From: a virus
DNA: 64,000 nt
IMG/VR virus record: IMGVR_UViG_3300027659_000009
Span: 102,353 to 166,352 of that record
Strand: one strand, 5' to 3'
A model generated the notes under the pieces. The model was not told where the DNA came from and did not search any database. It worked only from the letters and a program-made list of their open reading frames with translations. Numbering within the stretch: the stretch's first letter is position 1; each line of letters begins with the position of its first letter. The position numbers were made by a program, and so were the translations under genes. Below, piece after piece: positions 412-36,198 of the stretch.

Positions 412-852
412 ATGAACCTACAAGAATCCATAAGAAGAATATTAAGGGAAGATGAATATACTCCTGCAGGTAAAGAAATAACGCCAAACAAAATTGTTAT
501 ACACAAATCTAATCCAATGTTTAGGGACAATATATTAATGGATGGGTTAAGGGTTAAATCAGGAGAATGTTATAAAATATATGTTGGTTATGGTATCAAG
601 TGTAAACCCGCAATCTTTGCTACCAACTCAACAAATAAAAGAGCGTGGTTTGATTCAACTTATGATGATGATATATGGGAAATAAATACAGAAATGATTC
701 CCGATGTTATGTGGTATAAAGATAGACATTATGATACAAGATCAAAACATATTGTAACATTTCAAGACATACCTTTAAATGCTTTAACTTTAAAATACAA
801 AGGTGAAAGTATTGGTGATAGTACTTTACAAGAATCTATAAGAAGTTATTGA
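412..852 (+). CDS. leader-bearing protein, possible ADP-ribosyltransferase-like fold
   Basis: Leader MNLQESIRRILRE; body VIHKS..I...GL, AIFAT and IP..AL resemble Tpt1/KptA-type ART folds (tentative). Confidence 0.45.
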   Translation: MNLQESIRRILREDEYTPAGKEITPNKIVIHKSNPMFRDNILMDGLRVKSGECYKIYVGYGIKCKPAIFATNSTNKRAWFDSTYDDDIWEINTEMIPDVMWYKDRHYDTRSKHIVTFQDIPLNALTLKYKGESIGDSTLQESIRSY

Positions 853-932
853 ACGATATATACATAGGGATTGAACGATATATACATAGGGATAACGAAG
901 TAAGTATATAAGAAGAATATTTGAACCTCTAT
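851..932 (+). repeat. intergenic repeat: GAACGATATATACATAGGGA x2 plus tail, near-identical copy at 2561-2620
   Basis: 851-870 equals 873-892; 873-932 matches 2561-2620; partial copy near 4459. Confidence 0.9.
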
Positions 933-950
933 GTTGATATAGGGGTTTTT
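924..950 (+). terminator. intrinsic terminator
   Basis: AACCTCTAT...ATAGGGGTT stem followed by a T run. Confidence 0.7.
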
Positions 951-962
951 ATGTTTTTGTCG

Positions 963-970
963 ATATTTAT
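963..970 (+). promoter_or_regulatory. putative phage late promoter ATATTTAT (representative of about 30 copies)
   Basis: (A)TATTTAT lies a few to ~60 nt upstream of most leader-bearing and head genes, oriented with the gene, including minus-strand genes (near 39254, 63265). Confidence 0.75.
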
Positions 971-978
971 TTAATAGT

Positions 979-2559
979 ATGAAGATAATTGTCACAGAAG
1001 AACAAATAAAAAAAATCATAAATAATGTTTATGGTAATATATTATTTGAGGAAACTAAACCAAAACCTAAAAATCAAACTTATACTACAGTTCAAGATCG
1101 GTTGTTAACAAAAAATACTTTGACGGGAGGGGAATTAAAAATACCAAAGGGTACTAGATTTACCGCACACCAAAGTGGTGATAGAAAAGAAACTGGTGGT
1201 GCGGATTTTACGGCATCTGTAGATAGAATTACAAATGGTAAAAATAAACCTTCTACTACTTTTTATTGTAATGGAACAAATGCTGGTAAATTTTGGAACG
1301 TAGCGTCAAAATCTTGGTACTACGATAAAACAAAAGTACTTTCAGGATATCTATCCAAAAATTTGTGTACTAAATCATACGGAGATCAATATTATTGGGA
1401 AAATATGGTCAAATGGAGTGAACAAAAACAAGAGAAAGAAGAAGATGCTTGGGCACTTGAAAATAGTCCGTATGTTGACGCAACTGGTAAAAAAGTTATG
1501 TACGATAAAAGTACTGAATTTAAAAAGAATTACGATTTCTTAAAAAGTCAAGGATTAAATGTTGATGGTCTTATGAGTTCATCAATGCCGCGTCCACTAA
1601 GTGCAAACCATCATTTTAACTTGTGTGCATTATTTAGTATAAAAGATATTACAAATTTTCAAGCCAACAAGATCGGTTGGAATAATAAAGAATGTATGTC
1701 AATTGGTTTGTCTAGTTTAGGTAATGTTAAAATGAAGTCAAAATTATTAAATACTTATGACTCATCGGTGGGGACTCTTATTGATAACCGAAAATCACCA
1801 CTATATACTCAATTTAGTAATACTGTATCTCCATCTTACGCAAATTTCTTCCTATCTGACTTTTATTTCCAATGGGGTAAATTACTTAATGATATTAATG
1901 ATAGTGAGTCTTCCGCTGCTACGGTTTATTTCCCTGATGGTGTTTATAATTTTATGTCAACATATTATGGAACACCAAATGTTAGTAAAATAAAAAAGAC
2001 GATAGAATCAGTAAATGCGGGATGTCAAGGAGGAGGATTAACTCCAGAACAAGGTCATAAAATACTTTCTACACTAACATTTATTAGTACATTTATTCCT
2101 GTTGTTGGACCATTTATTGCCGCTGGATTGGGCACGGTTGATGCTGCAATACTTTATAGTGAAGGTAAAAAAACTGAGGCAGCACTTACTGTTGCTCTAA
2201 GTATAATACCTTTTGTTGGTGAGATTCCTGCGTTAAAAGGTATTGGACAAGAGGTATTTAAAAGTGCTGCTACTAAATTAGCCACTAAAGTCCCATTAAA
2301 TGCTGAGGAAATTTCTGCGTTTGGGAAACTTACAGGAGCCAAAGAGGAATTTGATATTTTAGTAAAACAATGGGTTGCCAGTAAAGTGTCAAGTCCTGCG
2401 GTTCAACAAATTGTTCAAGTTGTAAAGAAAAAAGGTGAGGGGTACTTAGTCGATAAAATGTCGGAAAAAATTGGTGTTCCACTTAAGAAACCCACTGACA
2501 TTGTAAAAAATGTTACAAAAGATGCGGCAAAATATTTGGCAAAGAAAATTGATTCTTAA
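979..2559 (+). CDS. leader-bearing putative virion protein with C-terminal pre-toxin-TG-like hydrophobic hairpin
   Basis: Leader MKIIVTEEQIKKII; C-terminal FIPVVGPFIAAGLGTVDAAILYSEG...ALSIIPFVG. Confidence 0.6.
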   Translation: MKIIVTEEQIKKIINNVYGNILFEETKPKPKNQTYTTVQDRLLTKNTLTGGELKIPKGTRFTAHQSGDRKETGGADFTASVDRITNGKNKPSTTFYCNGTNAGKFWNVASKSWYYDKTKVLSGYLSKNLCTKSYGDQYYWENMVKWSEQKQEKEEDAWALENSPYVDATGKKVMYDKSTEFKKNYDFLKSQGLNVDGLMSSSMPRPLSANHHFNLCALFSIKDITNFQANKIGWNNKECMSIGLSSLGNVKMKSKLLNTYDSSVGTLIDNRKSPLYTQFSNTVSPSYANFFLSDFYFQWGKLLNDINDSESSAATVYFPDGVYNFMSTYYGTPNVSKIKKTIESVNAGCQGGGLTPEQGHKILSTLTFISTFIPVVGPFIAAGLGTVDAAILYSEGKKTEAALTVALSIIPFVGEIPALKGIGQEVFKSAATKLATKVPLNAEEISAFGKLTGAKEEFDILVKQWVASKVSSPAVQQIVQVVKKKGEGYLVDKMSEKIGVPLKKPTDIVKNVTKDAAKYLAKKIDS

Positions 2560-2669: not shown

Positions 2670-3206
2670 ATGGCAAGAATTATAAGATTAACAGAAAGAG
2701 ATTTAACAAGATTGGTTAGACGAGTTATAAGAGAACAATTAACGGGTGAGGGTAACCAACCCGTAAGTAACGGTAAAAAAAATACAATTATTGAGATAAC
2801 CAACCAATCTCAAGTTCCACAATCTTTGGTTGACAATGCTCCCCCCGTTGGGTATTATGATGCTAATAGGGGTTCTCATGATGAGAAAGGCCAATATATT
2901 GATATTACAGATGAAAATGGTGTAACATACCGATTAAGGAATTTTGATTTCAACTTGGCAGCACATAGTACAAAAGGGATTATCGAAGCGGAATATAATA
3001 GTAACTTATTTCAAGGGGGTAAAGATTCTTCGGGTAGAGAATTGATAGCATATTTTAATGGTGTTCCAGGTTCTGAAGTTGTTCTTAATAACAAAGATAA
3101 ATGGATTGGTTTTACGTCTGACGATAGTTCAATAAAGTTTGCATGTTTTTCAGACAAGACAGGAACCTTCTCTTGTAAAAAATATAAATGGGATATACCA
3201 AAATAA
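2670..3206 (+). CDS. leader-bearing hypothetical (putative capsid cargo)
   Basis: Leader MARIIRLTERDLTRLVRRVIRE; late motif at 2645. Confidence 0.75.
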   Translation: MARIIRLTERDLTRLVRRVIREQLTGEGNQPVSNGKKNTIIEITNQSQVPQSLVDNAPPVGYYDANRGSHDEKGQYIDITDENGVTYRLRNFDFNLAAHSTKGIIEAEYNSNLFQGGKDSSGRELIAYFNGVPGSEVVLNNKDKWIGFTSDDSSIKFACFSDKTGTFSCKKYKWDIPK

Positions 3207-3338: not shown

Positions 3339-3704
3339 ATGGGAAGAATTATAAGATTAACAGAAAGAGATTTAACAAGATTGGTTAGACGAGTTATAAG
3401 AGAACAATCAGAGTCTGCCGTTTTTAACAAACAATATTTTATGGGTAAAAAAACAGGTAAAGTTAATTTTGACAATTCTGGATTCCCCACAACTGTTGAT
3501 GGTGTTGAGATAACTGATTACGATACTCAGTGGAAAAATAATTTTACCGTTAGAAATATTGGGGGTAGAGGTTTCCGTGGAGGGGACTACAATTGGACTT
3601 ATAGTGAAACTGTAGATTCAGGGATAATGGGACCTAACCAGAAAAAACCTGGAATCTCAATTACAGACGCTCAAAATCAAGAAGTCGGCACATTACTATT
3701 TTAA
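3339..3704 (+). CDS. leader-bearing hypothetical (putative capsid cargo)
   Basis: Leader MGRIIRLTERDLTRLVRRVIRE, DNA essentially identical to that of the 2670 gene; unrelated body. Confidence 0.75.
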   Translation: MGRIIRLTERDLTRLVRRVIREQSESAVFNKQYFMGKKTGKVNFDNSGFPTTVDGVEITDYDTQWKNNFTVRNIGGRGFRGGDYNWTYSETVDSGIMGPNQKKPGISITDAQNQEVGTLLF

Positions 3705-3783: not shown

Positions 3784-4419
3784 ATGAACATACAAGAAGA
3801 AATAAAAAGAATGAGACAAATGATGGGATTGAATGAACAAAAAGGTTCAATCACGTTAAGACTTGAAGGCCCTGTACAAACAGATTATACATATAATGGT
3901 CAAGAAGAACAAATATCATATCATATATATTCGGAGTTAAAAAAACTTAATGATGCAACGCAAATAACTAACGAAGATAAAACATATGCTGATTATGAAA
4001 TGCAAGGTTATACAAATACTAAAAACGTTGAAGACACAATCAAAAAAGTAATACCATCGGTCACTTGTACAGTTAACGGTATGGATATAACGTGCACATT
4101 CACATTGAGTAAATCCTTAAACGAACAGGTTGGGTCAGAATATAATTTTAATACTGATGGAATGAAATCCGAAACACACGTATATACAATTACTGACATA
4201 CAAGATTCTTCAAAAAAACAACGAGATCCTGCGGACCCTAAAAATAATACAAGAACAATACCTACAAAAAAAATAACATTGCAATGGACAAATCCACCAC
4301 AAGGATTACCGTCTGAAACTATTGTAATCACTAAAGAGTGTGGAAACAACACAATTACACCTCCGCGTGGGTATACATTAGACAATAAATTTATTGAATA
4401 TGTAAACGGATTGTGTTAA
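3784..4419 (+). CDS. leader-bearing two-module hypothetical
   Basis: Leader MNIQEEIKRMRQMMGLNE/QKGS; internal SLNE/QVGS. Confidence 0.7.
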   Translation: MNIQEEIKRMRQMMGLNEQKGSITLRLEGPVQTDYTYNGQEEQISYHIYSELKKLNDATQITNEDKTYADYEMQGYTNTKNVEDTIKKVIPSVTCTVNGMDITCTFTLSKSLNEQVGSEYNFNTDGMKSETHVYTITDIQDSSKKQRDPADPKNNTRTIPTKKITLQWTNPPQGLPSETIVITKECGNNTITPPRGYTLDNKFIEYVNGLC

Positions 4420-11438: not shown

Positions 11439-11729
11439 ATGAAAAAAATTGTAAGATTAACTGAATCAGATTTACAAAGAATTGTAAAACGTGTGATTAA
11501 AGAAAACGAAGTAATGGGTAATTATGACGATTTTAACTATGATATAAATCCTTTTGATTGTGGTGATAAGGTTGTATCTGGTACGGTAGACATTGATGGT
11601 GATGGGACTATTATGATAAATTATTGTAGTGGTAATGAGGGGGATTTAGAATACCTTAAAGAAAAAGGGCGTGAATTAGTCAAAAAAATGAGATCTGATT
11701 TTAATAAAATCGGAGGAAACCTATACTAA
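11439..11729 (+). CDS. leader-bearing hypothetical
   Basis: MKKIVRLTESDLQRIVKRVIKE. Confidence 0.75.
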   Translation: MKKIVRLTESDLQRIVKRVIKENEVMGNYDDFNYDINPFDCGDKVVSGTVDIDGDGTIMINYCSGNEGDLEYLKEKGRELVKKMRSDFNKIGGNLY

Positions 11730-12214
11730 TGAAAATAATTGTAACAGAAAATCAGGTTAATCGTTTATTCATTAATGAGAATGAGGAATTACTAAATAAG
11801 ATTCTCGATAAGATTGGTGAATACGGTATGGAGTCGTTGACGGACAACGAAAGAAAATTCTTAGACGATATGTCTAAAGATAAGGTTGATCCACATATCG
11901 AAAATTTACTCAGTATGGACTCAGGTTATGAGTTTGATGGTGAAGTGGATGAAGTACCCGTAAAGTTCACCTATGAGTCCACAGAGGAGTGGGATGACAA
12001 TCCTAAAGAATATAAACACATAGGTACTTTTAATTTTATGAATGGTGATGACGAAATAGATTATTACGTTGAGATATATACTGACGCAGATTATAATTTT
12101 ATGCATTTCGATATACACGATGGTAATGACTACGTTAATTTAAATGAGAATCTGGAAGATGAGTTAACACATTTCTTTTTGGATGTGAGTAATAAGTTGG
12201 CACAGTCGATGTAA
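11729..12214 (+). CDS. leader-bearing acidic hypothetical
   Basis: MKIIVTENQVNRLFINE; then LNKILDKI...GMESLT..E..FL helical motif. Confidence 0.7.
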   Translation: MKIIVTENQVNRLFINENEELLNKILDKIGEYGMESLTDNERKFLDDMSKDKVDPHIENLLSMDSGYEFDGEVDEVPVKFTYESTEEWDDNPKEYKHIGTFNFMNGDDEIDYYVEIYTDADYNFMHFDIHDGNDYVNLNENLEDELTHFFLDVSNKLAQSM

Positions 12215-12909: not shown

Positions 12910-13539
12910 ATGGGAAAAAATGATAAAAATTTTAATGAGACTATTGAAAGGATGAAATCTCTTTTTACGGAAGAGAGGATGTTTGGTAATTTAGTTGTGG
13001 AAGAAAAATCTTCTGAGGAAGATAAGGGTGAAGATGAGGGTAGTGAAGAGTCTACATCCACAAAACCTGAATGTTGTACAAGTTGTAACTGTTGGGAAGA
13101 TTGTGGTGGATCATCACATTTCAACGGAACCAACGGTAGACCTAAAATTGTTGTATCTAAGAGTAAAACTTATTTTTCGATATCATACGATGGTCCAAAA
13201 TCAGGTTACTTAATTAAACACGCTAAATGTGGTTCTGGTGATTCTTTACATCAGTTATGTAATGTTTTAACATATGAGATAAACAAATACCTTAAAGGTA
13301 AAAAATTAAAACCAAATATTAAAGATATTGAGTTTGAAAGGGAGGGTGGTGAGTTTACCATTGGAGTTCCTTTAACATCTTCTGAAAAAAGTTATAAGTT
13401 GGAAAGAAGAGGGGGAATGGGTCATGATCCTGGACCATCAACAGTTAAGGGAGTCTATGGTGATAGAAGTGGTTTTGAGGGACCAGTAAAACATTCTTCT
13501 GGTGGTATCACAGAATACTTTGTAACATTTTACGAATAA
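12910..13539 (+). CDS. leader-bearing hypothetical
   Basis: NFNETIERMKSLFTEE leader; acidic linker; Cys cluster. Confidence 0.65.
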   Translation: MGKNDKNFNETIERMKSLFTEERMFGNLVVEEKSSEEDKGEDEGSEESTSTKPECCTSCNCWEDCGGSSHFNGTNGRPKIVVSKSKTYFSISYDGPKSGYLIKHAKCGSGDSLHQLCNVLTYEINKYLKGKKLKPNIKDIEFEREGGEFTIGVPLTSSEKSYKLERRGGMGHDPGPSTVKGVYGDRSGFEGPVKHSSGGITEYFVTFYE

Positions 13540-13566: not shown

Positions 13567-13902
13567 ATGGATAAATTGACAAATAAAGACATTAAAAGGA
13601 TTGTTGAAAACTTAATGAAGGAAGGTATGGATAATGATGAGTCTGCCCACCTATATAGAAGAATACAAAGAAATGGGGAAGAGATAGACTCAATTATAAC
13701 GAAGTTTAGAGGTGCAAAAAATGAGTTAGACGATAAAATTAAAACACATATTAGAAGAGATACTGGTGGCACTATTTTTGATCCAAATCAAAGAACACCG
13801 AATGATGTTTTAGATAGTGTCGCAAATTTAAATAGAGTTTTAAATAATTTAGAAACTTTATTAAACGATTACAAAAATATAATAAGAAAATCAATCTACT
13901 AG
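13567..13902 (+). CDS. leader-bearing coiled-coil hypothetical
   Basis: MDKLTNKDIKRIVENLMKE. Confidence 0.65.
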   Translation: MDKLTNKDIKRIVENLMKEGMDNDESAHLYRRIQRNGEEIDSIITKFRGAKNELDDKIKTHIRRDTGGTIFDPNQRTPNDVLDSVANLNRVLNNLETLLNDYKNIIRKSIY

Positions 13903-15249: not shown

Positions 15250-15837
15250 ATGAAAAAAATAATTAGACTAAATGAATCAGATTTACGAAGAATTGTAAAT
15301 AGAGTAGTTAGAGAAACTACCAATACTAAGAGAGGACGTAGATTATATGAAGGATTAGAGGGAGATGAGACTCTGACTCTTCACTATATTACTATCAATG
15401 AGGGGATGAGAGGTAAATGGGAAGTATCTGATAATACTTTATATGTAACTTTTGATGAAGCCGAAAGAAGTATTGATTCTATGGGTAACCCTGCCTCAAG
15501 TATAACAAACAATAACTATGGTAATACTGATATGATGTGGGAAGTCCTGTGTTCATCAGAAGATGTCAAAAGAACAAGATCGTGGGCGGACGATATTGAG
15601 GAATTATATCCAAATGGAAGGGGAGTGGATGAGTCTAGACGTATTAGAAATAAACGTAGACTATATGAAACATTAGATCAGGAACGATATTCGTTGGGGG
15701 ATGTTAGAGAAATATTTAATGGTTCGAAAGGTAATTATGAAGTTAAACACAATAGTTTATTACTTACTGAGAATAGTAATCGTAATAATGTGATACAGGT
15801 TTTTTGTGATGAAGTTGACCCTGGAAGTTATCGGTAA
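15250..15837 (+). CDS. leader-bearing protein with internal duplication
   Basis: MKKIIRLNESDLRRIVNRVVRE; two modules each preceded by RRLYE and containing G.(W/Y)EV..N.L. Confidence 0.75.
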   Translation: MKKIIRLNESDLRRIVNRVVRETTNTKRGRRLYEGLEGDETLTLHYITINEGMRGKWEVSDNTLYVTFDEAERSIDSMGNPASSITNNNYGNTDMMWEVLCSSEDVKRTRSWADDIEELYPNGRGVDESRRIRNKRRLYETLDQERYSLGDVREIFNGSKGNYEVKHNSLLLTENSNRNNVIQVFCDEVDPGSYR

Positions 15838-15890: not shown

Positions 15891-16277
15891 ATGAAAAAGA
15901 TTATAAAATTAACAGAATCAGATTTACAAAGAATTGTAAATAGAGTAATTAGAGAAAGTATGATAAGTGAATTGGGTGGTATGGATGACGGACACCCGTT
16001 TTCTGGTAATTTGAACTTTAATGATTTATCATCTGATGACAGAAAAAAAGTTAATAAATATTACCGATTTGATGATGAGGAAGTAGATGATTCTTTTTCT
16101 GAATTAGATAATGATGAAGATGAAAATGAAGATGAGGGATTCCCTGAATGGGAAAAATTAAAAAAGTATATGGATGATCGAGATAAAAAACAAATTGATG
16201 ATCGAAATGAAAAAATGGACAATTTGATGCGTCAAATAAAAAAAGATAATAGTGAACGTCCATTTAATAGAGATTAA
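15891..16277 (+). CDS. leader-bearing acidic hypothetical
   Basis: MKKIIKLTESDLQRIVNRVIRE. Confidence 0.75.
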   Translation: MKKIIKLTESDLQRIVNRVIRESMISELGGMDDGHPFSGNLNFNDLSSDDRKKVNKYYRFDDEEVDDSFSELDNDEDENEDEGFPEWEKLKKYMDDRDKKQIDDRNEKMDNLMRQIKKDNSERPFNRD

Positions 16278-20021: not shown

Positions 20022-20275
20022 TGAAAAAAGTAATTATAACTGAGAAACAATTAATAGGTATAATAGAAGAGTCTTATTATGAAGAGTCATATTATGATTC
20101 TCAAAAATTATATAGTAAACAGTATATAGAGGAAATAACCAGAACTGCACCTTTTAATATTAAAAACATCGCAAGAGGATTAGAGGTTCTTGGGTGTACA
20201 GATAGTAATGGTAATACTATACAGTGTGTAAGAATTCCTGAAGTATTATTTGTTTACATCAGTGGTAGATATTAA
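20021..20275 (+). CDS. leader-bearing small hypothetical
   Basis: MKKVIITEKQLIGIIEE. Confidence 0.65.
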   Translation: MKKVIITEKQLIGIIEESYYEESYYDSQKLYSKQYIEEITRTAPFNIKNIARGLEVLGCTDSNGNTIQCVRIPEVLFVYISGRY

Positions 20276-20995: not shown

Positions 20996-21433
20996 ATGAA
21001 AATTAGAAAAAACGGAAAAGTTATAGAACTAACTGAAAATGAACTTAAAAAGATTATAGATAAATCCCCTAATAATGTAGAGGAGGGTATCATCTCAACA
21101 TTTAAAGGGCTGGGTGGTATGTTAAAAGGTACTGGTTTTAGTTATACTAAGTACGCATACGAAATGAGTGGAAAACTTAAAGAACTTAATGAGAATTTAG
21201 AGGAGGCAGTCGTTGAACTTGAAAGAATTTTAGATAAATCCAACCAATCTAAAATGTCGAATATATCTTTTGATAGGTTGACTACACATATAACTGACGC
21301 ATTAGATGCCTACAGAATGACTATTGGTACTAACGAAATAATCATTCAGGATTTAGAAAATTCTGTTTCTAATAATAGAAATCAAGGTAGGTCACAACAA
21401 AACCCTAATTCACAGTTTAATAATACCCCTTAA
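20996..21433 (+). CDS. leader-bearing helical hypothetical
   Basis: MKIRKNGKVIELTENELKKII...VEE/G. Confidence 0.7.
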   Translation: MKIRKNGKVIELTENELKKIIDKSPNNVEEGIISTFKGLGGMLKGTGFSYTKYAYEMSGKLKELNENLEEAVVELERILDKSNQSKMSNISFDRLTTHITDALDAYRMTIGTNEIIIQDLENSVSNNRNQGRSQQNPNSQFNNTP

Positions 21434-23913: not shown

Positions 23914-24345
23914 ATGACAAAATTTCAGGAGAGAATAATAAATTTGTTAAATAAGGATTATAATAAAAATACATTAGGTCGTAATTTTAATTTCAATTCT
24001 TTTGGGGATATTATGTTAATCGCTAGAAATGATATTTATAATGATTTAATTAATCATTATGGTGTCGATGTAAATAGTCCAGAATATACTTTTATAGTGA
24101 GAAACTGGTGTAGACAAAATTATGGTGATGGTAAATATGCGATAGCAGGGGACACTATACGACTAATAAATATGCCCGATGATCCAAACCCTATTGAACC
24201 AGGTACAGTTGGTGTTGTTAAAGAAGTATCTTCCAATTCCGCGTTTAATGAAGATTATTTAACTGTAAATTGGGAAAATGGGAGAAGTTTAAAGTTGATT
24301 GTTGGTTTGGATAAGTTTGAAAGAATTAAAGATAGTGTAAAATGA
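23914..24345 (+). CDS. DUF4314-like domain protein
   Basis: GDTIRLINMPDDPNPIEPGTVG.V...V.WENGRSL.LI.G.D.F. Confidence 0.7.
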   Translation: MTKFQERIINLLNKDYNKNTLGRNFNFNSFGDIMLIARNDIYNDLINHYGVDVNSPEYTFIVRNWCRQNYGDGKYAIAGDTIRLINMPDDPNPIEPGTVGVVKEVSSNSAFNEDYLTVNWENGRSLKLIVGLDKFERIKDSVK

Positions 24346-25382
24346 AAAAACTAATTAAACATATATTAAAAGAAGAGGTTGACAATAAGGTTAAGAAATA
24401 TCTAGATTATATTGTAAATTCTTTGTTAAAAGACGTTTATCTAAAGGAAAATTCAGGTGAAACTAGATTTGGTAGTGCAGGTGAACTTACGGATATGAAT
24501 CTATTCGGAGATGAGATATATGATTTAGTAAATAATCCTTTAGAATTTAGAAAATTGGGTTGGGATTTTTTAGTAGATGAAGAAGATCCTAACGATATGG
24601 GGTATTTTTTTAGGACAAATAAACCTGATTATGATTATGACTATGATGAATTTTATTATGAGGTTATATATGATTGGTTACACGATTTAACTGACAAAGG
24701 GTTATTAATTTATCATGAGGATTCTGGTGAACACGGTGAATGGGTAGTACCAACAAAGGATTTAATAATTAAATCAAATTCAAATTTATCTTTTAATATA
24801 CCATTATATTATGATATAAATAAACAAAGTTATTATATACCTGATATTGCAAGTACAAGTTTAAGAGTTCAAATAATGACTGATATAGATAAAGTGTACA
24901 GTATTAGTGATACATCTGAAATGGAATATGTTATAGATACTTTTTTAGAATTATTACCACAAAAATTAACTAATCTGGGTATTAATTTTTACATTAAAAA
25001 TGATAGAATATTTAGTAAAGTTAGAAATAATATAAACGAAGGTATTGTCGAAGATTTTATTGAGTTTGGTAAAAGTGAATTGTCATTAGGTGACGATTTC
25101 AAAGTAAATTTAACAGACAATACTGATAGTGTTCAGACATTAGGTAATTATGATATTGACGGTAAAGTGATTACCGTAGTTAAAAAGAATAGGGCAATAC
25201 CAGATATAATTAGATCCATCGCACACGAAATGGTACACCATAATCAAAATGTTAGAGGCGATCTGAGAGGAAGAGGAGACGAAGGTGAGGAGGGTTCTCC
25301 TTGGGAAGATGAGGCTAATTCGAGGGCAGGTAGATTAGTTAGAAGATTTGGGGATAAGAATCCTGAAATTTATGACTTATAG
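24342..25382 (+). CDS. leader + expanded YGL-like domain + HExxH zincin-like domain
   Basis: MKKLIKHILKEE; KYLDYIVNSLLKD; INE/G; IRSIAHEMVHHNQ...EDEANSRAG. Confidence 0.7.
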   Translation: MKKLIKHILKEEVDNKVKKYLDYIVNSLLKDVYLKENSGETRFGSAGELTDMNLFGDEIYDLVNNPLEFRKLGWDFLVDEEDPNDMGYFFRTNKPDYDYDYDEFYYEVIYDWLHDLTDKGLLIYHEDSGEHGEWVVPTKDLIIKSNSNLSFNIPLYYDINKQSYYIPDIASTSLRVQIMTDIDKVYSISDTSEMEYVIDTFLELLPQKLTNLGINFYIKNDRIFSKVRNNINEGIVEDFIEFGKSELSLGDDFKVNLTDNTDSVQTLGNYDIDGKVITVVKKNRAIPDIIRSIAHEMVHHNQNVRGDLRGRGDEGEEGSPWEDEANSRAGRLVRRFGDKNPEIYDL

Positions 25383-26860: not shown

Positions 26861-27055
26861 ATGAATAACGAAGAAAAAGCAACAATGTACCACACACTTT
26901 TATTGAGACACGATAAACTTGATGGACAAATCGCAGACATTAAATCAGAGGCTGCAGGTGTAGAATTAAATGAAGAACAAAAGAATCAACTTAAACTGTT
27001 AGAATCTCAAAAACAAGTGTTAGTAACCCAAGCCTTGTCATTGATGGGTTCATAA
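26861..27055 (+). CDS. small coiled-coil hypothetical
   Basis: 64-aa ORF. Confidence 0.6.
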   Translation: MNNEEKATMYHTLLLRHDKLDGQIADIKSEAAGVELNEEQKNQLKLLESQKQVLVTQALSLMGS

Positions 27056-27837
27056 TGAATGCAAAAAGTAAAATAAGGAGAATTTTACTAGAATCTACCA
27101 AAGGTTTAATGGATAGGTTTGCTGAAGGCGTGATCAAATTTAAGTATAAAGAAATTTATCACCATAATTTAGAACGTAAAGGTAAAGAATCTGCAGATAA
27201 CGAGTATCCGAAGTCATTTGAGGGGTATGTTGAACACCTTAAAGACTCATTTGGTGAACAAGACTCCTCGTTTGGTATTGAAATAAATCGTATTTTGAGT
27301 GCAGATAACCCTTTAATAGGGGGTATACCCTCTAAAGATGTCGCAGAAAATGTAATTAATTACATTCTAAACTATAATGAACCAAAAAAAAGGTTTAGAA
27401 TACACATTGTTGAAGAAAATGATGTATATAGTTTCATAGATAAAGAAATATTCACTTGTGATGATGAATTTTTTGAGTTTGTATGGGATAAATTAATAGG
27501 TGACGGACGTACTCAGTGGAATGAGAACCTAAAAGATAAATTATGGGGTGAAATTGAGAGTGAAGTAGAGGAAAAAATGAATGATGAAGAGTGGCAAGAA
27601 GAAAATGGTGTCACTTTTGATGGTTTAGAAAGAGAAAAATCTTACTTTACGACATATTGGCACTACCCAATACAGTCTTTAGGGTGGGATAACGATCAAT
27701 TATGTGAATTTTACAAAGATGTTATAGGTGAAGATAGATTATTTAAGGTAATTACAAATTATTATACTAAAAATAAGGATAAAATCTATTTAAATGATAA
27801 ATTTTACTACGTTTTTACTAAAAATTTGTTCTATTAA
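27055..27837 (+). CDS. leader-bearing acidic hypothetical
   Basis: MNAKSKIRRILLE/S. Confidence 0.7.
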   Translation: MNAKSKIRRILLESTKGLMDRFAEGVIKFKYKEIYHHNLERKGKESADNEYPKSFEGYVEHLKDSFGEQDSSFGIEINRILSADNPLIGGIPSKDVAENVINYILNYNEPKKRFRIHIVEENDVYSFIDKEIFTCDDEFFEFVWDKLIGDGRTQWNENLKDKLWGEIESEVEEKMNDEEWQEENGVTFDGLEREKSYFTTYWHYPIQSLGWDNDQLCEFYKDVIGEDRLFKVITNYYTKNKDKIYLNDKFYYVFTKNLFY

Positions 27838-28287: not shown

Positions 28288-29142
28288 ATGCGCATAATTA
28301 TAACGGAAACTCAACTTAAAAGAGTATTACTTTATGAGACTAAACAAGTAGTCATAACGGATGAATACTTAGATAAAGCGAAAAGTACCGTATCAAAATT
28401 ACAAACTAGAGGGTTCACTATTGATGCTGCTTGTGCAATGGCAGGTAATATTTGGGCAGAATCACAATTTGACGCATCAAGTGAGAGCCCCAATGGGGCA
28501 CTTGGACTTTTACAGTGGTTAGGAGATAGAAAAAAGGGGTTGTTGTCTTTTGCTAAACATAAAGAATCTGAATGGTCTAGTGAAAAAATACAATTAGATT
28601 ATACTAAGATAGAATTATTGGATGGTTATAAAATGACTAACGGTAAAGAAGTACCTAATTTACCGGCAGACATTAAATCATCTAATCAATATGAAGTAAA
28701 TCAATTTAATAGTGCAATGGAAGCGGATACTATACCACAAAAAGCACAAAAATTCGCAAAATTAGTAGAAAGATGTGGAGATTGTAACGGTACGATAGAT
28801 ATAAGAAAAGAATCTGCAAAAAGAATTCATGATTATATTAATGGTACATACAAAAAAAGTGGTAATAAAACAACACCAACAGTAACTACTAAAAAAGAAG
28901 ATAGTGGTTCACACTCTGTAGGTAGTACAGTTTACCCTAAAGAGTCTGAGGGGTATGCAAATGTAAGAAAAGACGCGAATAGAGATAGTGATAGAATTGC
29001 TAAAGTAATGTCACCAAATAAAATAGGTAAAATAACTAAAGTAAAAATTGACGGTGATGGAAATGAGTGGTATCAAGTTACTTTAGATAAAAAAGTAGAC
29101 GGATTTACAACTGGTTGGGTAAGATCAGACGCAATTAAATAA
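28288..29142 (+). CDS. leader + phage tail-type lysozyme + SH3b domain
   Basis: MRIIITETQLKRVLLYE; AMAGNIWAES.F...E...GALGLLQWLGDR; ANVRK...WYQV...GWVRSD. Confidence 0.85.
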   Translation: MRIIITETQLKRVLLYETKQVVITDEYLDKAKSTVSKLQTRGFTIDAACAMAGNIWAESQFDASSESPNGALGLLQWLGDRKKGLLSFAKHKESEWSSEKIQLDYTKIELLDGYKMTNGKEVPNLPADIKSSNQYEVNQFNSAMEADTIPQKAQKFAKLVERCGDCNGTIDIRKESAKRIHDYINGTYKKSGNKTTPTVTTKKEDSGSHSVGSTVYPKESEGYANVRKDANRDSDRIAKVMSPNKIGKITKVKIDGDGNEWYQVTLDKKVDGFTTGWVRSDAIK

Positions 29143-29182: not shown

Positions 29183-30829
29183 ATGAAGTACATTATAACA
29201 GAAAATCAATATAGAATTTTATTAAAGGAAGATAGAGTTGCTTTTTTAAAGACTCAAAATGTTATTGATCCTAAATTATTGGATGGTTTAACTAAAGGTA
29301 ATTTAGAGAAAAAAAGTAAGAGACCAGATGGTGGTATGGAACCTAACAAAATTAAAGTAGAGCCCATAGAAAATCATGAAGGTATTGATATCGCATACAT
29401 TGTAACAAACAATAAAGGTAAACAATCTATAAAATTAACAGATGAAATATTTAATGACATTGTTGAGGCGGATCCATCTAGAAATAAACAATATGTACAA
29501 TGGATGATTCAAGTTTTCCTAAGACATATTAGTGATGGTGATATTGAACAAGCGATTAGATTTTTAACAGAAGATTTACCAGAAGCAAATGAGTTCTTAA
29601 CAATTTTCGATGATGTTAAGAATAAAAAAGTATTTAAGAGAAGTGCACCCAATAGACCAAATGCACCTCAGAATGTAACAGACATTAATCAATACACTTC
29701 ATTGGCACAACTTTATTCTGTGGTTAGTCCATTTATTGGTGCCTCTGATGAAGAAAGTGAAGATGGTGAAAGTCCGTTATGGAAAAAATTAAAAAAGTAT
29801 ATTGATTTAGGTGAGGCTAAATTAGTGTATAGAGATGGTGATGTATTGATATACTCCCCTTTAACGATAGAGTCTAGTTGTGATCCTTTAGGTTCTTTAG
29901 CATCTTGGTGTACTAGAAGAGAAGGTAATACATATTTCGATTCTTATAGAAAAAATAATCCTAAACCCGATGGTACTAATTCAGACTACTATGTGATTAT
30001 GCCTAAAAATCTATTTAATGGTGACGATGAAGGTGACACATACCCTTTACAATTCCACTTTGAGTCTAATCAATTACACGATAAAAATAACACCTCTATT
30101 GAGAGAAGTTCTAAACTTAGTGAGGTACTTAGTAGATTCTCAGGGATGAAAGAATTCTTTAAAAAGGAGTTGGGTAAATTAGTTGAGATGGATGTGGTTA
30201 AAGGTACTGGACTTATGGATAGTTCTTACATTAAATATTTAAATATGTTCGGTGGTAAGGCAGAAGAAGTTATTTCTGGTGAAGTATATCAGAAGGGTGT
30301 TGATAACATTAAAAAATTGGCATCACAACAAAAAGTTCCTTTACAACAAAACAAATACTTAAAGTGGTTGATGGAGAATACTGAGAATGTGGAAATATTA
30401 GATTATTTGGATCCTGATGTTACAGAATCTTTAGACTTTTCTAATATGACTTTAGGTAAATTACCTAATATGTCTAAATTCCATAAGGTGGATAGAATAA
30501 CCGCAAATAATTGTAATTTAAATGTTTTACCATCTGTGGATATGTTACCTGATGGTGGTAGAATGATAAACGTACTTAGTTTTAATGACAACCAAATTAC
30601 TAAGGCACCTTTAGATGGTTATGAAACATTAAAAGAATGTTTTATGATTACACTATTAAACAATCCTATAAAAGAAATTAATGTACCTGTATTGACAAAA
30701 ATGATAGAGGATGAAACATTTATTCGTTTTGGTGTGAACACTGATGTGGTAAATAACTTATCACCTGATAACGCAAAAGAATTCCAAAGTTTAGTGGATG
30801 AAGTAGGTGGGACAATTACATTTAGATAA
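29183..30829 (+). CDS. leader-bearing protein with WCT-motif domain and C-terminal leucine-rich repeats
   Basis: MKYIITENQYRILLKE; SWCT...QFHFESNQ; LDFSNMTLGKLP, ITANNCNLNVLP, LSFNDNQIT, LLNNPI. Confidence 0.7.
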   Translation: MKYIITENQYRILLKEDRVAFLKTQNVIDPKLLDGLTKGNLEKKSKRPDGGMEPNKIKVEPIENHEGIDIAYIVTNNKGKQSIKLTDEIFNDIVEADPSRNKQYVQWMIQVFLRHISDGDIEQAIRFLTEDLPEANEFLTIFDDVKNKKVFKRSAPNRPNAPQNVTDINQYTSLAQLYSVVSPFIGASDEESEDGESPLWKKLKKYIDLGEAKLVYRDGDVLIYSPLTIESSCDPLGSLASWCTRREGNTYFDSYRKNNPKPDGTNSDYYVIMPKNLFNGDDEGDTYPLQFHFESNQLHDKNNTSIERSSKLSEVLSRFSGMKEFFKKELGKLVEMDVVKGTGLMDSSYIKYLNMFGGKAEEVISGEVYQKGVDNIKKLASQQKVPLQQNKYLKWLMENTENVEILDYLDPDVTESLDFSNMTLGKLPNMSKFHKVDRITANNCNLNVLPSVDMLPDGGRMINVLSFNDNQITKAPLDGYETLKECFMITLLNNPIKEINVPVLTKMIEDETFIRFGVNTDVVNNLSPDNAKEFQSLVDEVGGTITFR

Positions 30830-30891: not shown

Positions 30892-31056
30892 ATGAGAAGA
30901 GAAAAAAAAGTGATTAGATTGACTGAATCAGAAATGATTAACTTAGTAGAAAGAATTGTTAATGAAGTAAAAAGAGAAAAAAGAGCGCAAGTTACTGAAT
31001 CTTTAAGACAAAGAGAATCTAAAAGATTGTCAGAAAATAGAAATAGAAGAAGGTAA
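30892..31056 (+). CDS. near cargo-less leader peptide (54 aa, absent from the ORF track)
   Basis: MRREKKVIRLTESEMINLVERIVNEVKREKRAQVTESLRQRESKRLSENRNRRR; late motif at ~30851. Confidence 0.75.
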   Translation: MRREKKVIRLTESEMINLVERIVNEVKREKRAQVTESLRQRESKRLSENRNRRR

Positions 31057-31064: not shown

Positions 31065-32915
31065 ATGAAAAAAATTCAAACCCTTAACGAAGAAATACAA
31101 AAAATGAGAAAATTAATGTCATTTAACATTAATGAAAATTCTCATGATTCACTATCTGAAGAAAATTTTAAAAAGAGTACTGAAGGGACTTACCTTATCA
31201 ATGAACAATCTTACGAAGGTAATTGGGTAATTATTTGGTTGGAATCTAAAGGTAAAGGAAATGACTTACAAAGAAAGAATAACGATAATTCAGGATTTGC
31301 AAATAACATTATCGGTACTATATCTAACGATGTTTTAACATTAAATAAAGATGGTAATTTTATATTTGATACAAGATCTTACCCAAAAACTATAGAACAA
31401 ATTGATGTGTTATTTGATAAGGGGTTAATATCAGTAAAAGAGGATATAGATAACAAAGAGGATATAGATAACAAAAATATTGTTAAAACTTTTACTAATA
31501 AACAAATAAGAATTGCTAAAAAAGACTTTGATAATAAAATGGATAAGTCAATTGATGCCGCAGATTGGAAAAAAGGGTATAGTGGTACTTTACTTATTAA
31601 TCACGTAATGTACCCTAGTGCTAAAAATGTTGGGGAACATGAGGGTCCTGAAGGATACTTATATGGTGGATACTTATGGTATGGGAAAAATGAAAAGTTT
31701 AATTTTTCCCCAGTAAATGATGATGATGATACACCACCAAAGGATGATCCTAAACCTGGTACTAAAATTACTGTTGAAGATTTTAATGTTAATAATATTG
31801 GGAAAACTTACCTTAATAATATGGTAAAACCAAATTTAGTTGGAAAAAACTTAACTGATTTTAATTTACTTGCAGAACAATTTTCTAATTATATTAAAGC
31901 TGGTGGGTTAGAAAAATTAACAAACGTAACAATGCAAGGTAGTGCTGACGCAAGTCCCCCAAGTTGGTCGGGACCTGATGCGGAACCTATTGATCACGAT
32001 TATGGTGATATTAAATATCAAAAATATCCAAAACCTGATGTTCTCGAAAAAATGAATTTATATTTAGCAGAATATAGAGCATTAAATTATTCAAACCTAT
32101 TAATTGCTAAGATTAAAGAATTATGTGGCGAAACGATAACAATAAAACAATTACCACCTATTAGTTATTTGAGTCAACCAAACAAGGTAGGTAAACAATA
32201 TCGATCAGTAATTTTAACCCCTAATGCACCAACAATTGAGATTCATGATACCACTCCAATTGATGGTTCTGAAATTGAAATTTCAGATAAAGAAAAAATA
32301 AAAACGGTATATACTGATACTATTGGCTCTGAGCCAATATCTATTACTATTACAATAGATGGTAAGAGCGTTACCGTAGGAAATAATACAGATGGATCAG
32401 TTAATGCTATCAAAACTAAAAACGGGTTTTATCTTAGTAAACGTTTTATTGAACAATTTAAGATTCCAGAAACCCCTGACAGTGTTATTGATGGAGTTAC
32501 TTATACACCCGGAGGATCAATATCGTTTAATGATGAAAATGGAAATAAACAAACATTTAAAATGAGTAAAAAACCAATGGGAGTGAAACACAATGAAATT
32601 TATTGGAATCTGGAACAAGGAAAAGCTGAAATAAAACCATGGTTTAGTTCTGTAGAGTGTGGGCAGGATTCCTCTTTTTCTGAAGCAGAAGGGTCAGCGT
32701 TTACTGGCATCCCTTTTACGACTTACAAATCTGACGATGAGAAACAATATAAAGGTGAATGGTTTTTTAAAGTTGTAAATTCTTGGTTCGCATATAGTGG
32801 AATTGAATGTGTGGGATCAGACATTTACGGTAAACCAAAGAAGCCACCACGAACTGATTTTAGGAATATGAATAGTTATAAAAACATTCCCCCGAATTTA
32901 GAATCAATGTTTTAA
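31065..32915 (+). CDS. large leader-bearing protein with OmpA-like motif
   Basis: TLNEEIQKMRKLM; TMQGSAD...NLYLAEYRA...YRSV. Confidence 0.65.
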   Translation: MKKIQTLNEEIQKMRKLMSFNINENSHDSLSEENFKKSTEGTYLINEQSYEGNWVIIWLESKGKGNDLQRKNNDNSGFANNIIGTISNDVLTLNKDGNFIFDTRSYPKTIEQIDVLFDKGLISVKEDIDNKEDIDNKNIVKTFTNKQIRIAKKDFDNKMDKSIDAADWKKGYSGTLLINHVMYPSAKNVGEHEGPEGYLYGGYLWYGKNEKFNFSPVNDDDDTPPKDDPKPGTKITVEDFNVNNIGKTYLNNMVKPNLVGKNLTDFNLLAEQFSNYIKAGGLEKLTNVTMQGSADASPPSWSGPDAEPIDHDYGDIKYQKYPKPDVLEKMNLYLAEYRALNYSNLLIAKIKELCGETITIKQLPPISYLSQPNKVGKQYRSVILTPNAPTIEIHDTTPIDGSEIEISDKEKIKTVYTDTIGSEPISITITIDGKSVTVGNNTDGSVNAIKTKNGFYLSKRFIEQFKIPETPDSVIDGVTYTPGGSISFNDENGNKQTFKMSKKPMGVKHNEIYWNLEQGKAEIKPWFSSVECGQDSSFSEAEGSAFTGIPFTTYKSDDEKQYKGEWFFKVVNSWFAYSGIECVGSDIYGKPKKPPRTDFRNMNSYKNIPPNLESMF

Positions 32916-33601
32916 AACATTTTATTGTAATCCTCTTTATATTGGACATCAAGTTTTTTACTTTTTAAATAATACATTCCAAAACTAGTTTCAAATACAC
33001 CAACCGCATATATTTGGTAGGTAACTGTTCCGTTATAGTTTTCAGTCGCATTATACTTTACAGAAAAATATCCTTTTTTGATTGAGGTTTTATTACCAAG
33101 ACTATCTTTTTGATCTCCAGATGACCAAGCCATTATTACATAATGACCTTTAGATTCTACAAAGTTATTTATAAGCATTTTTGATATCTCTTTGTTTGAC
33201 ATAATTTTATTTTTATCAAAAGTCATTTTAACATAAGTGATTATTTCACCATCATAACACCAAACAAACGTTTTTTCGTGATAAGTGTCTTTTGGATCTG
33301 GATAATACAAATAATACTCTTTATTAAAAAAATTATATCTTTCTAAAGGTCTTTCTAATACTTTATCCCCACAGGTTATGGTATTCTGAGTGTGTGTCAC
33401 TAAAGTATATTTTTCAAGATATGTTGCATGTAGTTCTGCCGCTTTTTTACAATTTAGTGAAAGATACCTTTTATTGGAATTAAGTTTAGTTCTTTCTACG
33501 TTATGTAATTCAAACATATATTTAGATATTGAATCACAATTAATTTGAGACATTAAGTTTAATGAAGTTGTGATCATCAAAATTAAAATTAAGTTTTTCA
33601 T
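32912..33601 (-). CDS. secreted CAP/SCP-domain protein
   Basis: Signal peptide ending S/Q; HNVER..L, AAELHA..L...HT, S.GH...M; promoter at 33622-33652. Confidence 0.65.
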   Translation of the reverse strand: MKNLILILMITTSLNLMSQINCDSISKYMFELHNVERTKLNSNKRYLSLNCKKAAELHATYLEKYTLVTHTQNTITCGDKVLERPLERYNFFNKEYYLYYPDPKDTYHEKTFVWCYDGEIITYVKMTFDKNKIMSNKEISKMLINNFVESKGHYVIMAWSSGDQKDSLGNKTSIKKGYFSVKYNATENYNGTVTYQIYAVGVFETSFGMYYLKSKKLDVQYKEDYNKMF

Positions 33602-33696
33602 AGTTATTACGTTTATATTAACAAATATACGACATTTTTTTTAATACACAAACTTTTTTACTGTTTTTTTTATATTTATATAAAAAATAATTTATT

Positions 33697-35661
33697 ATGG
33701 GAAAAAATACGTTAACAGAAGAAATATATAGAATGAGAAAATTGATGGGACACGACTCAAATGAATATAGAGAAAATGTCACTTCGTTTGATAAACTTTT
33801 AGAAGAAAAAATGATAAAAAAATATCTTCTTAAAGAAGAGGATGGTGAAGATCCAAAATTTTCTGATTGGTCCAATGGTGGTAAAGTTAACTGGGAAAAT
33901 GCAAAGTTAAAAAATATAATAGAATATATTAGTGAAGTTGATAAGTATTTTGGTGGTACTTATTTAAATAATCCATCATACACTACAATGATGGATTGGT
34001 TTGAGGAAAATGATAGTCTAAATGTGAGAAATTCATTAAAAGAATGGATGTTTGGTGACATTTATTATGGCATTAAAAAATCCGAAGATGTTAAACAAAC
34101 TAAGAAAAATGCAGTTACACCTGATGAGTTTGATAAGAACCTACAAGTCGAATTGGCAACTATTTTAGATACCGCGTCTAAAATTGATTTAAATAAACTT
34201 AATATAACAGATTCAGAAGGTACGGTTGATAAAACATTAACTAACGATATAGAAACTTTAATATCGTCTAGAACATTAGAAAAATTAAATAAAGAATTAA
34301 TATCATTAAATAAAGGTAATGTTTTCCTTAAAAAAGATATATTGGACCCATTAAAAACTAACCTTAATGTTTTAATAACATACGCTAAAAATACTAACCC
34401 TACGGATGATGACATAGATGCTATTACGGATGTTGTAGATGATTTATTATATTTTGATTTAGAGGATAAGGAAGAAATTGGTTTAGATATATCTGACGAC
34501 GATGTTAAAATAGATGTCGATGCCGACAAAAGGATTGGGATTAAAAATAGTCTAATGAAAAAATTATCTGCCGAAATAAAGACTGTCGGTGAGGATACTT
34601 ATAGTAAATTACTTAAAAGAATTATTAATATAAAAATTACTGATGAACCTAATGAACTTTCACAGTTTAAAGTTGAGGGTGGACAAAAAGGTATTCCTAT
34701 TATGACAGAAGGGGATTCAGAAATGTTCCAATACCCACCAGTAAATACTCCTGAAGGGGAAAGAAATAATTTAGGTAATAACTTCTTCCCCGATGATGGT
34801 ACATCTATGGGTGAGAACGCAATCGCAGGGATAAGAGAACAAGTGAGATTACTAAAAAAGTTTATAGATGATCAAGATTCAGAGGTTGAGGCACAAAGAA
34901 CAGAAAATGGTTTAGATGAAGAATTTAAATTAGAAGTATCTGCAATTGGAATATTCGTATATTCCTCAACTAGTAAAGTAAGAACAACTTATAAAAGTAA
35001 AGATAAAAGTTTTAGTGAAGGTAATAACATAAAATTAGCAGAAGATAGAAGTAGTGCGATAGAAAACACAGTTAGAAATATTTTAAAACAGTTTGGCTTA
35101 GATGAATATAATATAATCTTAGCCTCTAGAATTGAAAAACCGAATACTGGACCGGGTTGGACAAAATTAGATGGTAAATATGCTGACGGTTTAGACGTAC
35201 CTATAACTGCATATGGTACGATGTTTCAAGAAGCATATAAAAAAAATAATAAATTAACCCCTCAATTATTTTACGGTAATAGAGGTAATGATTGGGCGAA
35301 GAAAGCGTCAAAAATATTAGGTAGGGAAATACCACAACAAGAATTATCACAAGAATATAACGATATTTATGGATTATTTAGAATGAATTTGGCGGGAATT
35401 AGTGTTACCTTAAGAAAACCAACTATAGTTACTAAAGAAGAAGTTGGTGAGGATTACTTAGTTATTGCGGTACCAGGAATGGGATTAGAATTTGCGGCAA
35501 ATGAAGAATTTAGTTTTAAGGATACTTGGGATAATTTTAAAAGAGGTGTAAAAAAATTAAAAAAGAAAATAAAGAAAAAATTTAAATTTAACCCACCACG
35601 TAGAAATTATAATAAAATTCCTATAACTACAGACAAACATGGATGCCCTAAATGGGATTAA
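33697..35661 (+). CDS. large leader-bearing protein with OmpA-like motif
   Basis: TLTEEIYRMRKLMG...YLLKE; IFVYSSTS...NIKLAEDRS.AI. Confidence 0.65.
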   Translation: MGKNTLTEEIYRMRKLMGHDSNEYRENVTSFDKLLEEKMIKKYLLKEEDGEDPKFSDWSNGGKVNWENAKLKNIIEYISEVDKYFGGTYLNNPSYTTMMDWFEENDSLNVRNSLKEWMFGDIYYGIKKSEDVKQTKKNAVTPDEFDKNLQVELATILDTASKIDLNKLNITDSEGTVDKTLTNDIETLISSRTLEKLNKELISLNKGNVFLKKDILDPLKTNLNVLITYAKNTNPTDDDIDAITDVVDDLLYFDLEDKEEIGLDISDDDVKIDVDADKRIGIKNSLMKKLSAEIKTVGEDTYSKLLKRIINIKITDEPNELSQFKVEGGQKGIPIMTEGDSEMFQYPPVNTPEGERNNLGNNFFPDDGTSMGENAIAGIREQVRLLKKFIDDQDSEVEAQRTENGLDEEFKLEVSAIGIFVYSSTSKVRTTYKSKDKSFSEGNNIKLAEDRSSAIENTVRNILKQFGLDEYNIILASRIEKPNTGPGWTKLDGKYADGLDVPITAYGTMFQEAYKKNNKLTPQLFYGNRGNDWAKKASKILGREIPQQELSQEYNDIYGLFRMNLAGISVTLRKPTIVTKEEVGEDYLVIAVPGMGLEFAANEEFSFKDTWDNFKRGVKKLKKKIKKKFKFNPPRRNYNKIPITTDKHGCPKWD

Positions 35662-35673
35662 TAAATATATATT

Positions 35674-36198
35674 ATGAAAATTAAAAAAAATAATGTTATA
35701 GTTACACTTACAGAAAGTGATATAACGTCAATTAAAAAATATCTTTTAAAAGAAGAAAAAATATCATTTAAGTTTTGTTTTAAGACATATCCTGAATGGT
35801 TAAGATCCGACAGTACGGAAGCGGGGATTGCGGGAACTAAAGCATCTAGTGATAATACTTTGTGGAAAAAAATAAAAACAGGTGTTACATTTTCAGTCAC
35901 TAATTGTGAAGGGTTGAAAAACGATGAAATTAGCACTGGTATCCTATCAAAAATAACTGACTTTACTTTAAGAGAAAAGGCAGTAGAAAAAACTGTTGAA
36001 TTTTGTAGATCTCACATAAACGGTGTTATTGAGGATATTAAATCTGGTGACGTTAAAAAAAGAAAGATTCACATTAAAAGTGACTTTACACCACCAAATG
36101 ATGAATCAATCGATTCGTGGGTAACTAAACATGACTTCACAACAGAAATTGCAGATTTAGTACAGATTAATAAATGTCTTTACAATACACAGTTCTAA
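35674..36198 (+). CDS. leader-bearing hypothetical
   Basis: MKIKKNNVIVTLTESDITSIKKYLLKE. Confidence 0.7.
   Translation: MKIKKNNVIVTLTESDITSIKKYLLKEEKISFKFCFKTYPEWLRSDSTEAGIAGTKASSDNTLWKKIKTGVTFSVTNCEGLKNDEISTGILSKITDFTLREKAVEKTVEFCRSHINGVIEDIKSGDVKKRKIHIKSDFTPPNDESIDSWVTKHDFTTEIADLVQINKCLYNTQF

Follow-up and report, generated by a model that had tools for sequence, protein, structure and literature searches.

The final 64 kb (the window) of a 166,352-bp viral contig, IMGVR_UViG_3300027659_000009, raise the question of why so many otherwise dissimilar proteins should begin with one of a few short N-terminal leaders. We counted 45 such leader genes on the whole contig, of which the window has 27 and positions 412-36198 have 26. 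The contig has a G+C content of 30%, with nearly all genes on the same strand, and the window also holds a head module in the order known from phage T4. With a probability of roughly two in three, we read the leaders as capsid-targeting propeptides of the T4 kind. The support for this reading is convergent but indirect, with packaging, cleavage and ejection each deduced from sequence.

The leaders form two related pairs, A (LTESDLxRIVxRVIxE, A1; IITExQ, A2) and B (IRRILKE, B1; EEIxRMRxLM, B2), and range in length from 7 to 25 aa. Two profiles built from the contig’s own proteins (coreA, 19 aa; coreB, 11 aa) were scanned on six-frame open reading frames (ORFs) of the whole contig. They returned 24 matches of at least 12 bits for class A and 15 of at least 8 bits for class B, with zero matches to reversed-sequence controls for either profile; six weaker cases recognized by eye are included in the total of 45. 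Strong profile matches all begin within a few residues of the initiator Met, and no internal copies were found on the contig. Leader genes also lie outside the window, between 18 and 102 kb of the genome, and all 45 sum to about 11,400 codons, or about one fifth of the contig. A preliminary description of the window had assigned leaders to a series of start positions, and all of these do begin ORFs with leaders of the class named. Among the further examples that it gave, two class A variants, at 20996..21433 (VIELTENELKKII) and 35674..36198 (VTLTESDITSIKKYLLKE/E, the slash here and below marking the predicted cut), were detected by coreA at 20.4 and 18.4 bits, while those at 44203, 47496, 48326 and 50846 were missed by both profiles.

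Beyond the leaders the proteins have nothing evident in common. A blastp comparison of the cargo parts, taken as everything after residue 35, found no pairwise similarity at E < 1e-4; similarity thus ends where the leader ends, as had been claimed. The leaders carry a charged residue every two to four positions and so lack a hydrophobic core of about 10 or more residues of the Sec or lipoprotein type, and genuine signal peptides of the same genome, which occur on minus-strand genes such as 36212-36712, look quite unlike them. Three minus-strand genes with classical hydrophobic signal peptides (36212-36712, 32912-33601 and 26019-26534) sit inside the plus-strand leader block. One encodes a CAP/SCP-family protein, two lie behind host-type TTG...TAnnTTTG promoters, and the three look like morons run from host promoters. 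Calling leaders by eye also gave a false positive outside the window, a pterin-4a-carbinolamine dehydratase (genome 97513-97962; Pfam 5e-23). This Pterin_4a protein was not kept among the class B leader genes, as both profiles pass it over and its Pfam domain begins inside the segment in question; the native N-terminal segment of this family presumably resembles a class B leader.

Several observations indicate that it is the peptide that is conserved. Among the paralogues, conserved leader positions are encoded by varied synonymous codons (Ser by TCN or AGT; Arg by AGA, CGT or CGA; Leu by TTA, TTG or CTN), which points to selection on the peptide and not on an RNA or DNA signal. One pair of A1 genes, at 2670..3206 (RLTERDLTRLVRRVIRE/Q; coreA 26.0 bits) and 3339..3704 (26.7 bits), has identical leader DNA, pointing to recent duplication or exchange. 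The clearest case is the A2 gene at 28288..29142, called by profile, whose cargo is a phage tail lysozyme with an SH3 domain (Pfam). Its leader, MRIIITExQ..LLxE, is kept in all 43 orthologues, down to 52% identity, and is the most conserved 19-aa window of the protein (rank 1 of 266), above the catalytic region. In an AlphaFold2 model computed from the 43-orthologue alignment, residues 1-19 have a predicted local distance difference test (pLDDT) score below 50 and form a loose, unpacked helix at residues 7-18, next to a lysozyme domain with pLDDT of 83-98. Highly conserved yet outside the fold, this leader behaves as would a linear motif that docks onto a partner protein. In the most distant homologue (38% identity) its place is taken by another short leader, ending in ITE/G, which looks like a leader swap, and the homologues in cultured phages have no tag, with the alignment beginning only at residue 29-38. 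The tag therefore appears to be a swappable graft.

A plausible processing enzyme is encoded in the same window. The head module comprises the large terminase, a portal protein of the T4 gp20 type (53556..55457, + strand; PF07230, 2e-76), two small orphan genes, a prohead protease of the T4 gp21 type (56862..57551, +; family S77; PF03420, 9e-25), an acidic scaffold at the gp22 position (57652..59085, +) and a major capsid protein of the gp23 type (59126..60925, +; PF07068, 3e-72). The presumed processing enzyme aligns to T4 gp21 (5JBL, 9e-19), with His (GEADHP) and Ser (GVSSRG) at aligned positions. Residues 57-61 of the capsid protein read [LI][LI]NE and then S or A both here and in four relatives (62-65% identity), at a position that matches the propeptide cut of T4 gp23; the LLNE/S site noted in the preliminary description is thus conserved where it was expected. 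The PINE/S and NLNE/S sites of the scaffold are invariant in 32 homologues. The scaffold also has a long poly-acidic low-complexity stretch and, at about residues 155-205 (LDLTGASDEEV...IHL...EYYI), a small, strongly conserved domain that could be a docking site. A PHROG search returned no family for the core proteins around the protease.

The same cut motif recurs in the leaders. Composition predicts 7.7 copies of the string [LI][NT]E[SA] in the proteome and 1.6 in leader proteins; the observed counts are 42 (5.5-fold) and 17. The copies cluster in the scaffold, in a 592-aa head-proximal protein, in the repeat protein at 9501 and in the leader proteins. In the class A alignment, Leu7, Glu9 and Glu22 are the best-conserved residues and I, V or L stands two residues ahead of Glu22, so that two L/I-x-E units flank the helix. 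An [LI]-x-E site lies at residues 6-32 in 44 of 45 leaders, compared with 70 of 182 other proteins (38%; p = 2e-14), a comparison that is partly circular for A1 and B1, whose recognition has the motif built in; the statement that most leaders end in (I/L)-x-E nevertheless stands. Class B2 offers a non-circular case, with [LI]-x-E a few residues past the defining motif in seven of nine. Two [LI]-x-E sites are present in 25 leaders. A group of repeat-domain proteins lacks leaders (9501-11348, with 6479-7531, 8900-9514 and 12221-12820, the first on the + strand). The first of these, of 615 aa, shares internal repeats with its neighbors; in it [LI][NT]E[SA] recurs four times at intervals of about 100 aa, where 0.03 sites would be expected, and the protein may be a polyprotein that the head protease divides.

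Promoter motifs associate the leader genes with the head genes. The 8-mer most enriched upstream of genes, ATATTTAT, lies within 60 nt of 46 genes and has 66 plus-strand copies in total. Among the genes that follow it are those for the portal and the protease, the next gene after the portal and others of structural type. The motif stands ahead of 17 of 45 leader genes and 31 of 182 others (p = 0.004). The preliminary description had put nearly all leaders behind this motif; this does not hold for the full set but does for leader genes with an upstream gap of their own of at least 40 nt, since the 17 make up most of the roughly 20 such genes. The host-type promoter (TTG-N17-21-TAnnTTTG) was found at none of the 45 leader genes and at 17 of 182 others (p = 0.03), so that, by promoter motif, the tags do not appear equally common on early genes, the pattern that the preliminary description had named as speaking against its proposal. 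Judged from these motifs only, the leader genes would be late, with head-gene-like timing. Outside the window, two ORFs (genome 24758-25555 and 89770-90279) have N-termini that look sigma-factor-like by eye and are candidate readers of ATATTTAT; each has a host-type promoter (genes at 24271 and 89770) either directly at it or a short way upstream.

The leaders extend well beyond this contig. Searched by word index against 5.8e9 sequences, the class A profile matched over 7,000 proteins, and exhaustive HMMER against 1.84e9 representatives gave at least 7,609 cluster representatives at E ≤ 1e-3, all of them unnamed metagenomic proteins; among the best 150 listed, nearly all single-stretch matches begin at residue 1. 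A degenerate leader DNA pattern was present in at least 120 IMG/VR contigs and, in 596 Gb of prokaryotic genomes, in one contig only, a 3.3-kb piece of a metagenome-assembled genome (MAG). The tag is phage-restricted and essentially absent from cellular genomes. With a class A1 protein as query, tblastn found no match at E ≤ 1 among 50,697 phage records, a result limited by the low-complexity filter and by unseen near-identical records. In leader proteins from other metagenomes (P0001-P0138), many of the best-scoring members have two or three ESDLxRIVKRVIxE cores, the later ones internal and without Met, and multi-copy proteins have a tag of their own ahead of each domain. Such Met-less internal copies argue against a role tied to the start codon.

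Relatives of this phage, about 290 kb when near-complete, each carry between 4 and 22 class A leaders. An S77 protease turned up in 12 of the 15 large records from IMG/VR that bear leaders, among them seven of the eight with a completeness of 90% or more. The exception, G010, stops about 1 kb after its Clp gene, and in the near-identical G011 and G012 the distance from Clp gene to protease is 11-13 kb, so the head module of G010 probably lies in its missing end. The closest cultured capsid proteins (30-41% identical) are those of Rhodothermus RM378, Flavobacterium phage immuto and Microcystis phage Mel-JY01. The host is likely one of the Bacteroidota, given that the sole cellular-genome match of the leader pattern is a Bacteroidetes MAG contig, that one relative carries CHU_C/SprB-type domains and that the Bacteroidetes-type promoter TTG...TAnnTTTG lies upstream of 17 contig genes.

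Where cargo could be identified, it pointed mostly to the cell wall. Besides the lysozyme with SH3 domain, Pfam recognized LysM in the B1 gene at 16282..16545 (6e-12; coreB 13.1 bits) and PG_binding_1 in the A1 gene at 19236..20021 (6e-12; coreA 23.6 bits), and outside the window a leader-tagged murein hydrolase of 1006 aa combines three domains, glucosaminidase, VanY and M23. A protein at genome 35269 shares its peptidoglycan-binding domain with tagged cargo yet has no leader. The A2 leader at 11729..12214 (coreA 17.4 bits) is followed by DUF6576 (Pfam), and Pfam gave a weak nucleotidyltransferase match at 44203. Lysozyme, LysM and peptidoglycan-binding cargo were accordingly as previously described, with the nucleotidyltransferase weakly so, while the zincin, leucine-rich-repeat and ADP-ribosyltransferase-like assignments went unconfirmed. 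Four leader proteins have bare HExxH motifs, and only one of the four lies in the window (B1, LIKHILKE/E; 24342..25382; coreB 8.7 bits), and the leucine-rich-repeat pattern was not found in leader proteins. The remaining cargo matched no Pfam or PHROG family, most of it consisting of orphans; a PHROG search with 10 leader proteins returned no family except two unknown-function matches. The B2 gene at 33697..35661 (EEIYRMRKLM; coreB 13.0 bits) encodes a 654-aa cargo that was considered as OmpA-like and rejected, its Atlas feature search score of 0.80 being at the level of chance.

If the leaders are capsid-targeting propeptides, each would act as a short N-terminal segment made up of a beta-like MKKIIRL piece and an amphipathic helix. 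Through the leader, proteins made late would have affinity for the scaffolding core while the prohead assembles. After enclosure, the gp21-type serine protease would cut them behind the Glu of [L/I]-x-E, in many leaders twice, and mature cargo would be freed inside the head. Part of that cargo, which includes peptidoglycan hydrolases and binders and many orphans, would probably exit with the DNA at infection. The indirect tests were all consistent with the earlier proposal of a portable tag removed by a T4-type prohead protease; the injected effectors that it also envisaged are a further step.

Several findings weigh against this interpretation. Leaders of this kind are absent from the nearest isolates, Flavobacterium phage immuto and Microcystis phage Mel-JY01, and the contig has a CheckV completeness of about 51%. 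The [LI]-x-E motif is low in information. Leader and protease co-occur at clade level only, and a ClpC-like ATPase co-occurs with the leaders equally well. Cargo net charge runs from -29 to +26, unlike the basic internal proteins of T4. In cultured phages, homologues of the 28288 cargo bear the annotation tail lysin or tail protein. The internal copies would fit fused leader-cargo units split by the protease, and would fit a general interaction helix equally well.

This last point bears on the possibility, unlikely in our view, that the leaders are interaction tags for a non-virion partner in the infected cell, either a ClpC/ClpB-like unfoldase or, with the leader as an amphipathic helix, a membrane or condensate. 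Directly after the leader block, on the minus strand at 36769-39279, lies a gene for an 836-aa ClpC/ClpB-like double AAA+ protein (Clp_N, AAA, AAA_lid_9, UVR motif, AAA_2 and ClpB_D2-small), with homologues in 13 of 15 leader-bearing relatives and in all eight near-complete ones. The helix copies between domains of other metagenomic proteins, together with the disordered and unpacked tag of the AlphaFold2 model, would suit such a partner. However, the Clp co-occurrence holds at clade level only and cannot discriminate, conserved acidic residues would be odd in a membrane helix, and we know of no Clp degron of the leader form. Moreover, the promoter pattern ties the leader genes to the head genes, and a non-virion partner leaves the cut-motif match unexplained. 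The Clp-like protein itself could serve virion assembly or the tagged proteins, as chaperone or unfoldase.

We consider it quite improbable that the leader is a docking peptide for sites on the virion outside the head interior (tail, baseplate or capsid exterior), where it would serve to display binding or lytic modules. The identified cargo, mostly cell-wall-binding and lytic domains, accords with this idea, as do the tail annotations of the lysozyme homologues, and some of the cargo could be tail. Docking of this kind does not explain the near-invariant Glu with L or I at P3, matching the capsid and scaffold cut sites, and to our knowledge T4-type tail assembly uses no such proteolysis; most of the cargo, moreover, is orphan and not obviously structural.

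Two further explanations fare worse. It is very improbable that the leaders are recognition sequences for a peptide-modifying enzyme, with one maturase for many substrates as for ribosomally synthesized and post-translationally modified peptides: the roughly half-complete contig (~51%) has no PF04055 (radical-SAM) match, with controls matched in 14 of 14 genomes, its lone CxxxCxxC motif lies in a 2720-aa structural-type protein, and the cargo reaches 1006 aa with folded enzyme domains. That the shared 5' ends are DNA cassettes, promoter plus start region, kept for recombinational shuffling or translation around a functionless peptide is scarcely credible, even though T4-type genomes shuffle genes via short regulatory cassettes (PMC2839356) and one leader pair here is identical in DNA, and we rejected this RNA-signal or cassette-only account on the codon evidence (TCN/AGT for Ser, AGA/CGT for Arg at conserved residues), internal copies without start codons and the rank of the leader as most conserved peptide window in 43 orthologues having largely refuted it as well.

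The capsid-targeting interpretation has a well-studied precedent. In T4, gp21 cuts after Glu in L/I-X-E, and internal proteins carry an N-terminal capsid-targeting sequence (CTS) of 10-19 aa that ends in L/I-X-E and is removed in the prohead (PMC9026906; PMC3012670; Mullaney and Black, 1996, as cited in these two papers). The CTS of IPI, IPII and IPIII and the short propeptides of Alt and gp24 are removed by gp21, and among the diverse internal proteins of T-even phages the CTS alone is conserved (PMC9026906; PMC3012670). T4-like phages have been suggested to use the CTS for incorporating varied proteins (PMC9026906). The leaders described here are likewise N-terminal and short, end in L/I-x-E, accompany a gp21-type protease and precede cargo that is unrelated past the tag; their genes are non-core and lie in variable regions, and the same motif marks the predicted capsid and scaffold cuts. 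Unlike T4, with its handful of tagged genes, this phage has about 45 on half a genome. Its leaders, furthermore, fall into four classes, are mostly longer (11-25 aa) and often have two cut motifs flanking an amphipathic helix, and relatives carry internal tag copies. The likeness to the CTS is one of pattern (amphipathic, with an L/I-x-E end), the tags being too short for a homology test.

Other systems share parts of this arrangement. In encapsulins, a short conserved cargo-loading peptide suffices to bring diverse cargo into an HK97-fold shell, although these peptides usually sit at the C-terminus, attach to the shell itself and are not clipped off by a protease. Polymorphic toxins fused to MuF (SPP1 gp7-like) head domains show that the head can carry variable effectors. 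The Dar proteins of P1 are head-carried anti-defence proteins (PMC9024508; PMC12810830). Both cases resemble the present one in that phage heads carry and deliver variable effector or anti-defence proteins, but they rely on a folded domain or on ordered assembly dependencies and not on a short clipped leader. In the giant phages phiKZ, 201phi2-1 and SPN3US, the inner-body and ejection proteins bear propeptides that a diverged gp21 homologue cuts at S/A-X-E (PMC9026906; PMC5694885; PMC10052503). These jumbo phages have dozens of head-internal proteins, gp21-like cleavage after Glu and redundant propeptide cut sites; however, their propeptides share no short portable tag, the motif differs and the capsid lineage is another one.

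On our reading, the leaders would expand the established CTS principle of T4, and the mechanism itself would not be new. In the literature we found no description of the motif strings or of expanded CTS families, and the tag family, its four classes, the paired cut sites, the internal copies and the scale (45 genes in half a genome, and no fewer than 7,609 clusters) appear undescribed. If the interpretation is correct, a short signature marks thousands of uncharacterised proteins as virion-delivered. The host meets such proteins before any others of the phage, and anti-defence and takeover functions are likeliest to be found among them. The CTS principle, known from few proteins, could then reach about one fifth of the coding capacity of a genome, and the tags would be new, possibly orthogonal handles for packaging foreign proteins in phage heads. 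More tentatively, and with somewhat less than even odds, a large clade of ~290-kb T4-type jumbo phages, probably of Bacteroidota, may use a multi-class peptide address code that loads dozens of interchangeable proteins into each virion head. Leader classes, and internal copies by which fusions would become polyproteins that divide themselves, might then set copy number, position or release order. Under an address code, the phage head would rank as a major organelle for delivering effectors, and nature would contain at least 7,600 cargo families still to be characterised.

The remaining leader genes of the window, all on the plus strand as are those given above, are as follows. Class A1 is further represented at 11439..11729 (coreA 29.6 bits), 15250..15837 (25.3 bits), 15891..16277 (30.3 bits), 17921..18310 (23.2 bits), 18352..18573 (16.0 bits), 18578..18877 (28.9 bits) and 30892..31056 (23.0 bits), the last encoding 54 aa. 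Further A2 leaders occur at 979..2559 (MKIIVTEEQ; 19.4 bits), on a 526-aa protein with no Pfam or PHROG match, at 20021..20275 (19.9 bits) and at 29183..30829 (MKYIITENQYRILLKE/D; 548 aa; 5.5 bits), and a weak class A-like leader at 13567..13902 (DIKRIVENLMKE; 12.5 bits). To class B1 belong 412..852 (MNLQESIRRILRE/D; coreB 13.2 bits), 17147..17443 (13.6 bits) and 27055..27837 (KIRRILLE/S; 8.2 bits), and to class B2 3784..4419 (EEIKRMRQMMGLNE/Q; 12.3 bits) and 31065..32915 (EEIQKMRKLMSFNINE/N; 616 aa; 10.4 bits). The gene at 12910..13539 has a weak B2-like leader (ETIERMKSLFTEE), recognized by eye only and without an [LI]-x-E site.

Three other loci in the window touch none of these subjects. 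A DUF192 protein is encoded on the minus strand at 25370-25771, and an N6/N4 DNA methylase on the plus strand at 39296-40219. At 40846-42789 (+), two ORFs whose N-termini look thymidylate synthase-like by eye are split by an HNH-motif ORF (41418-42110).

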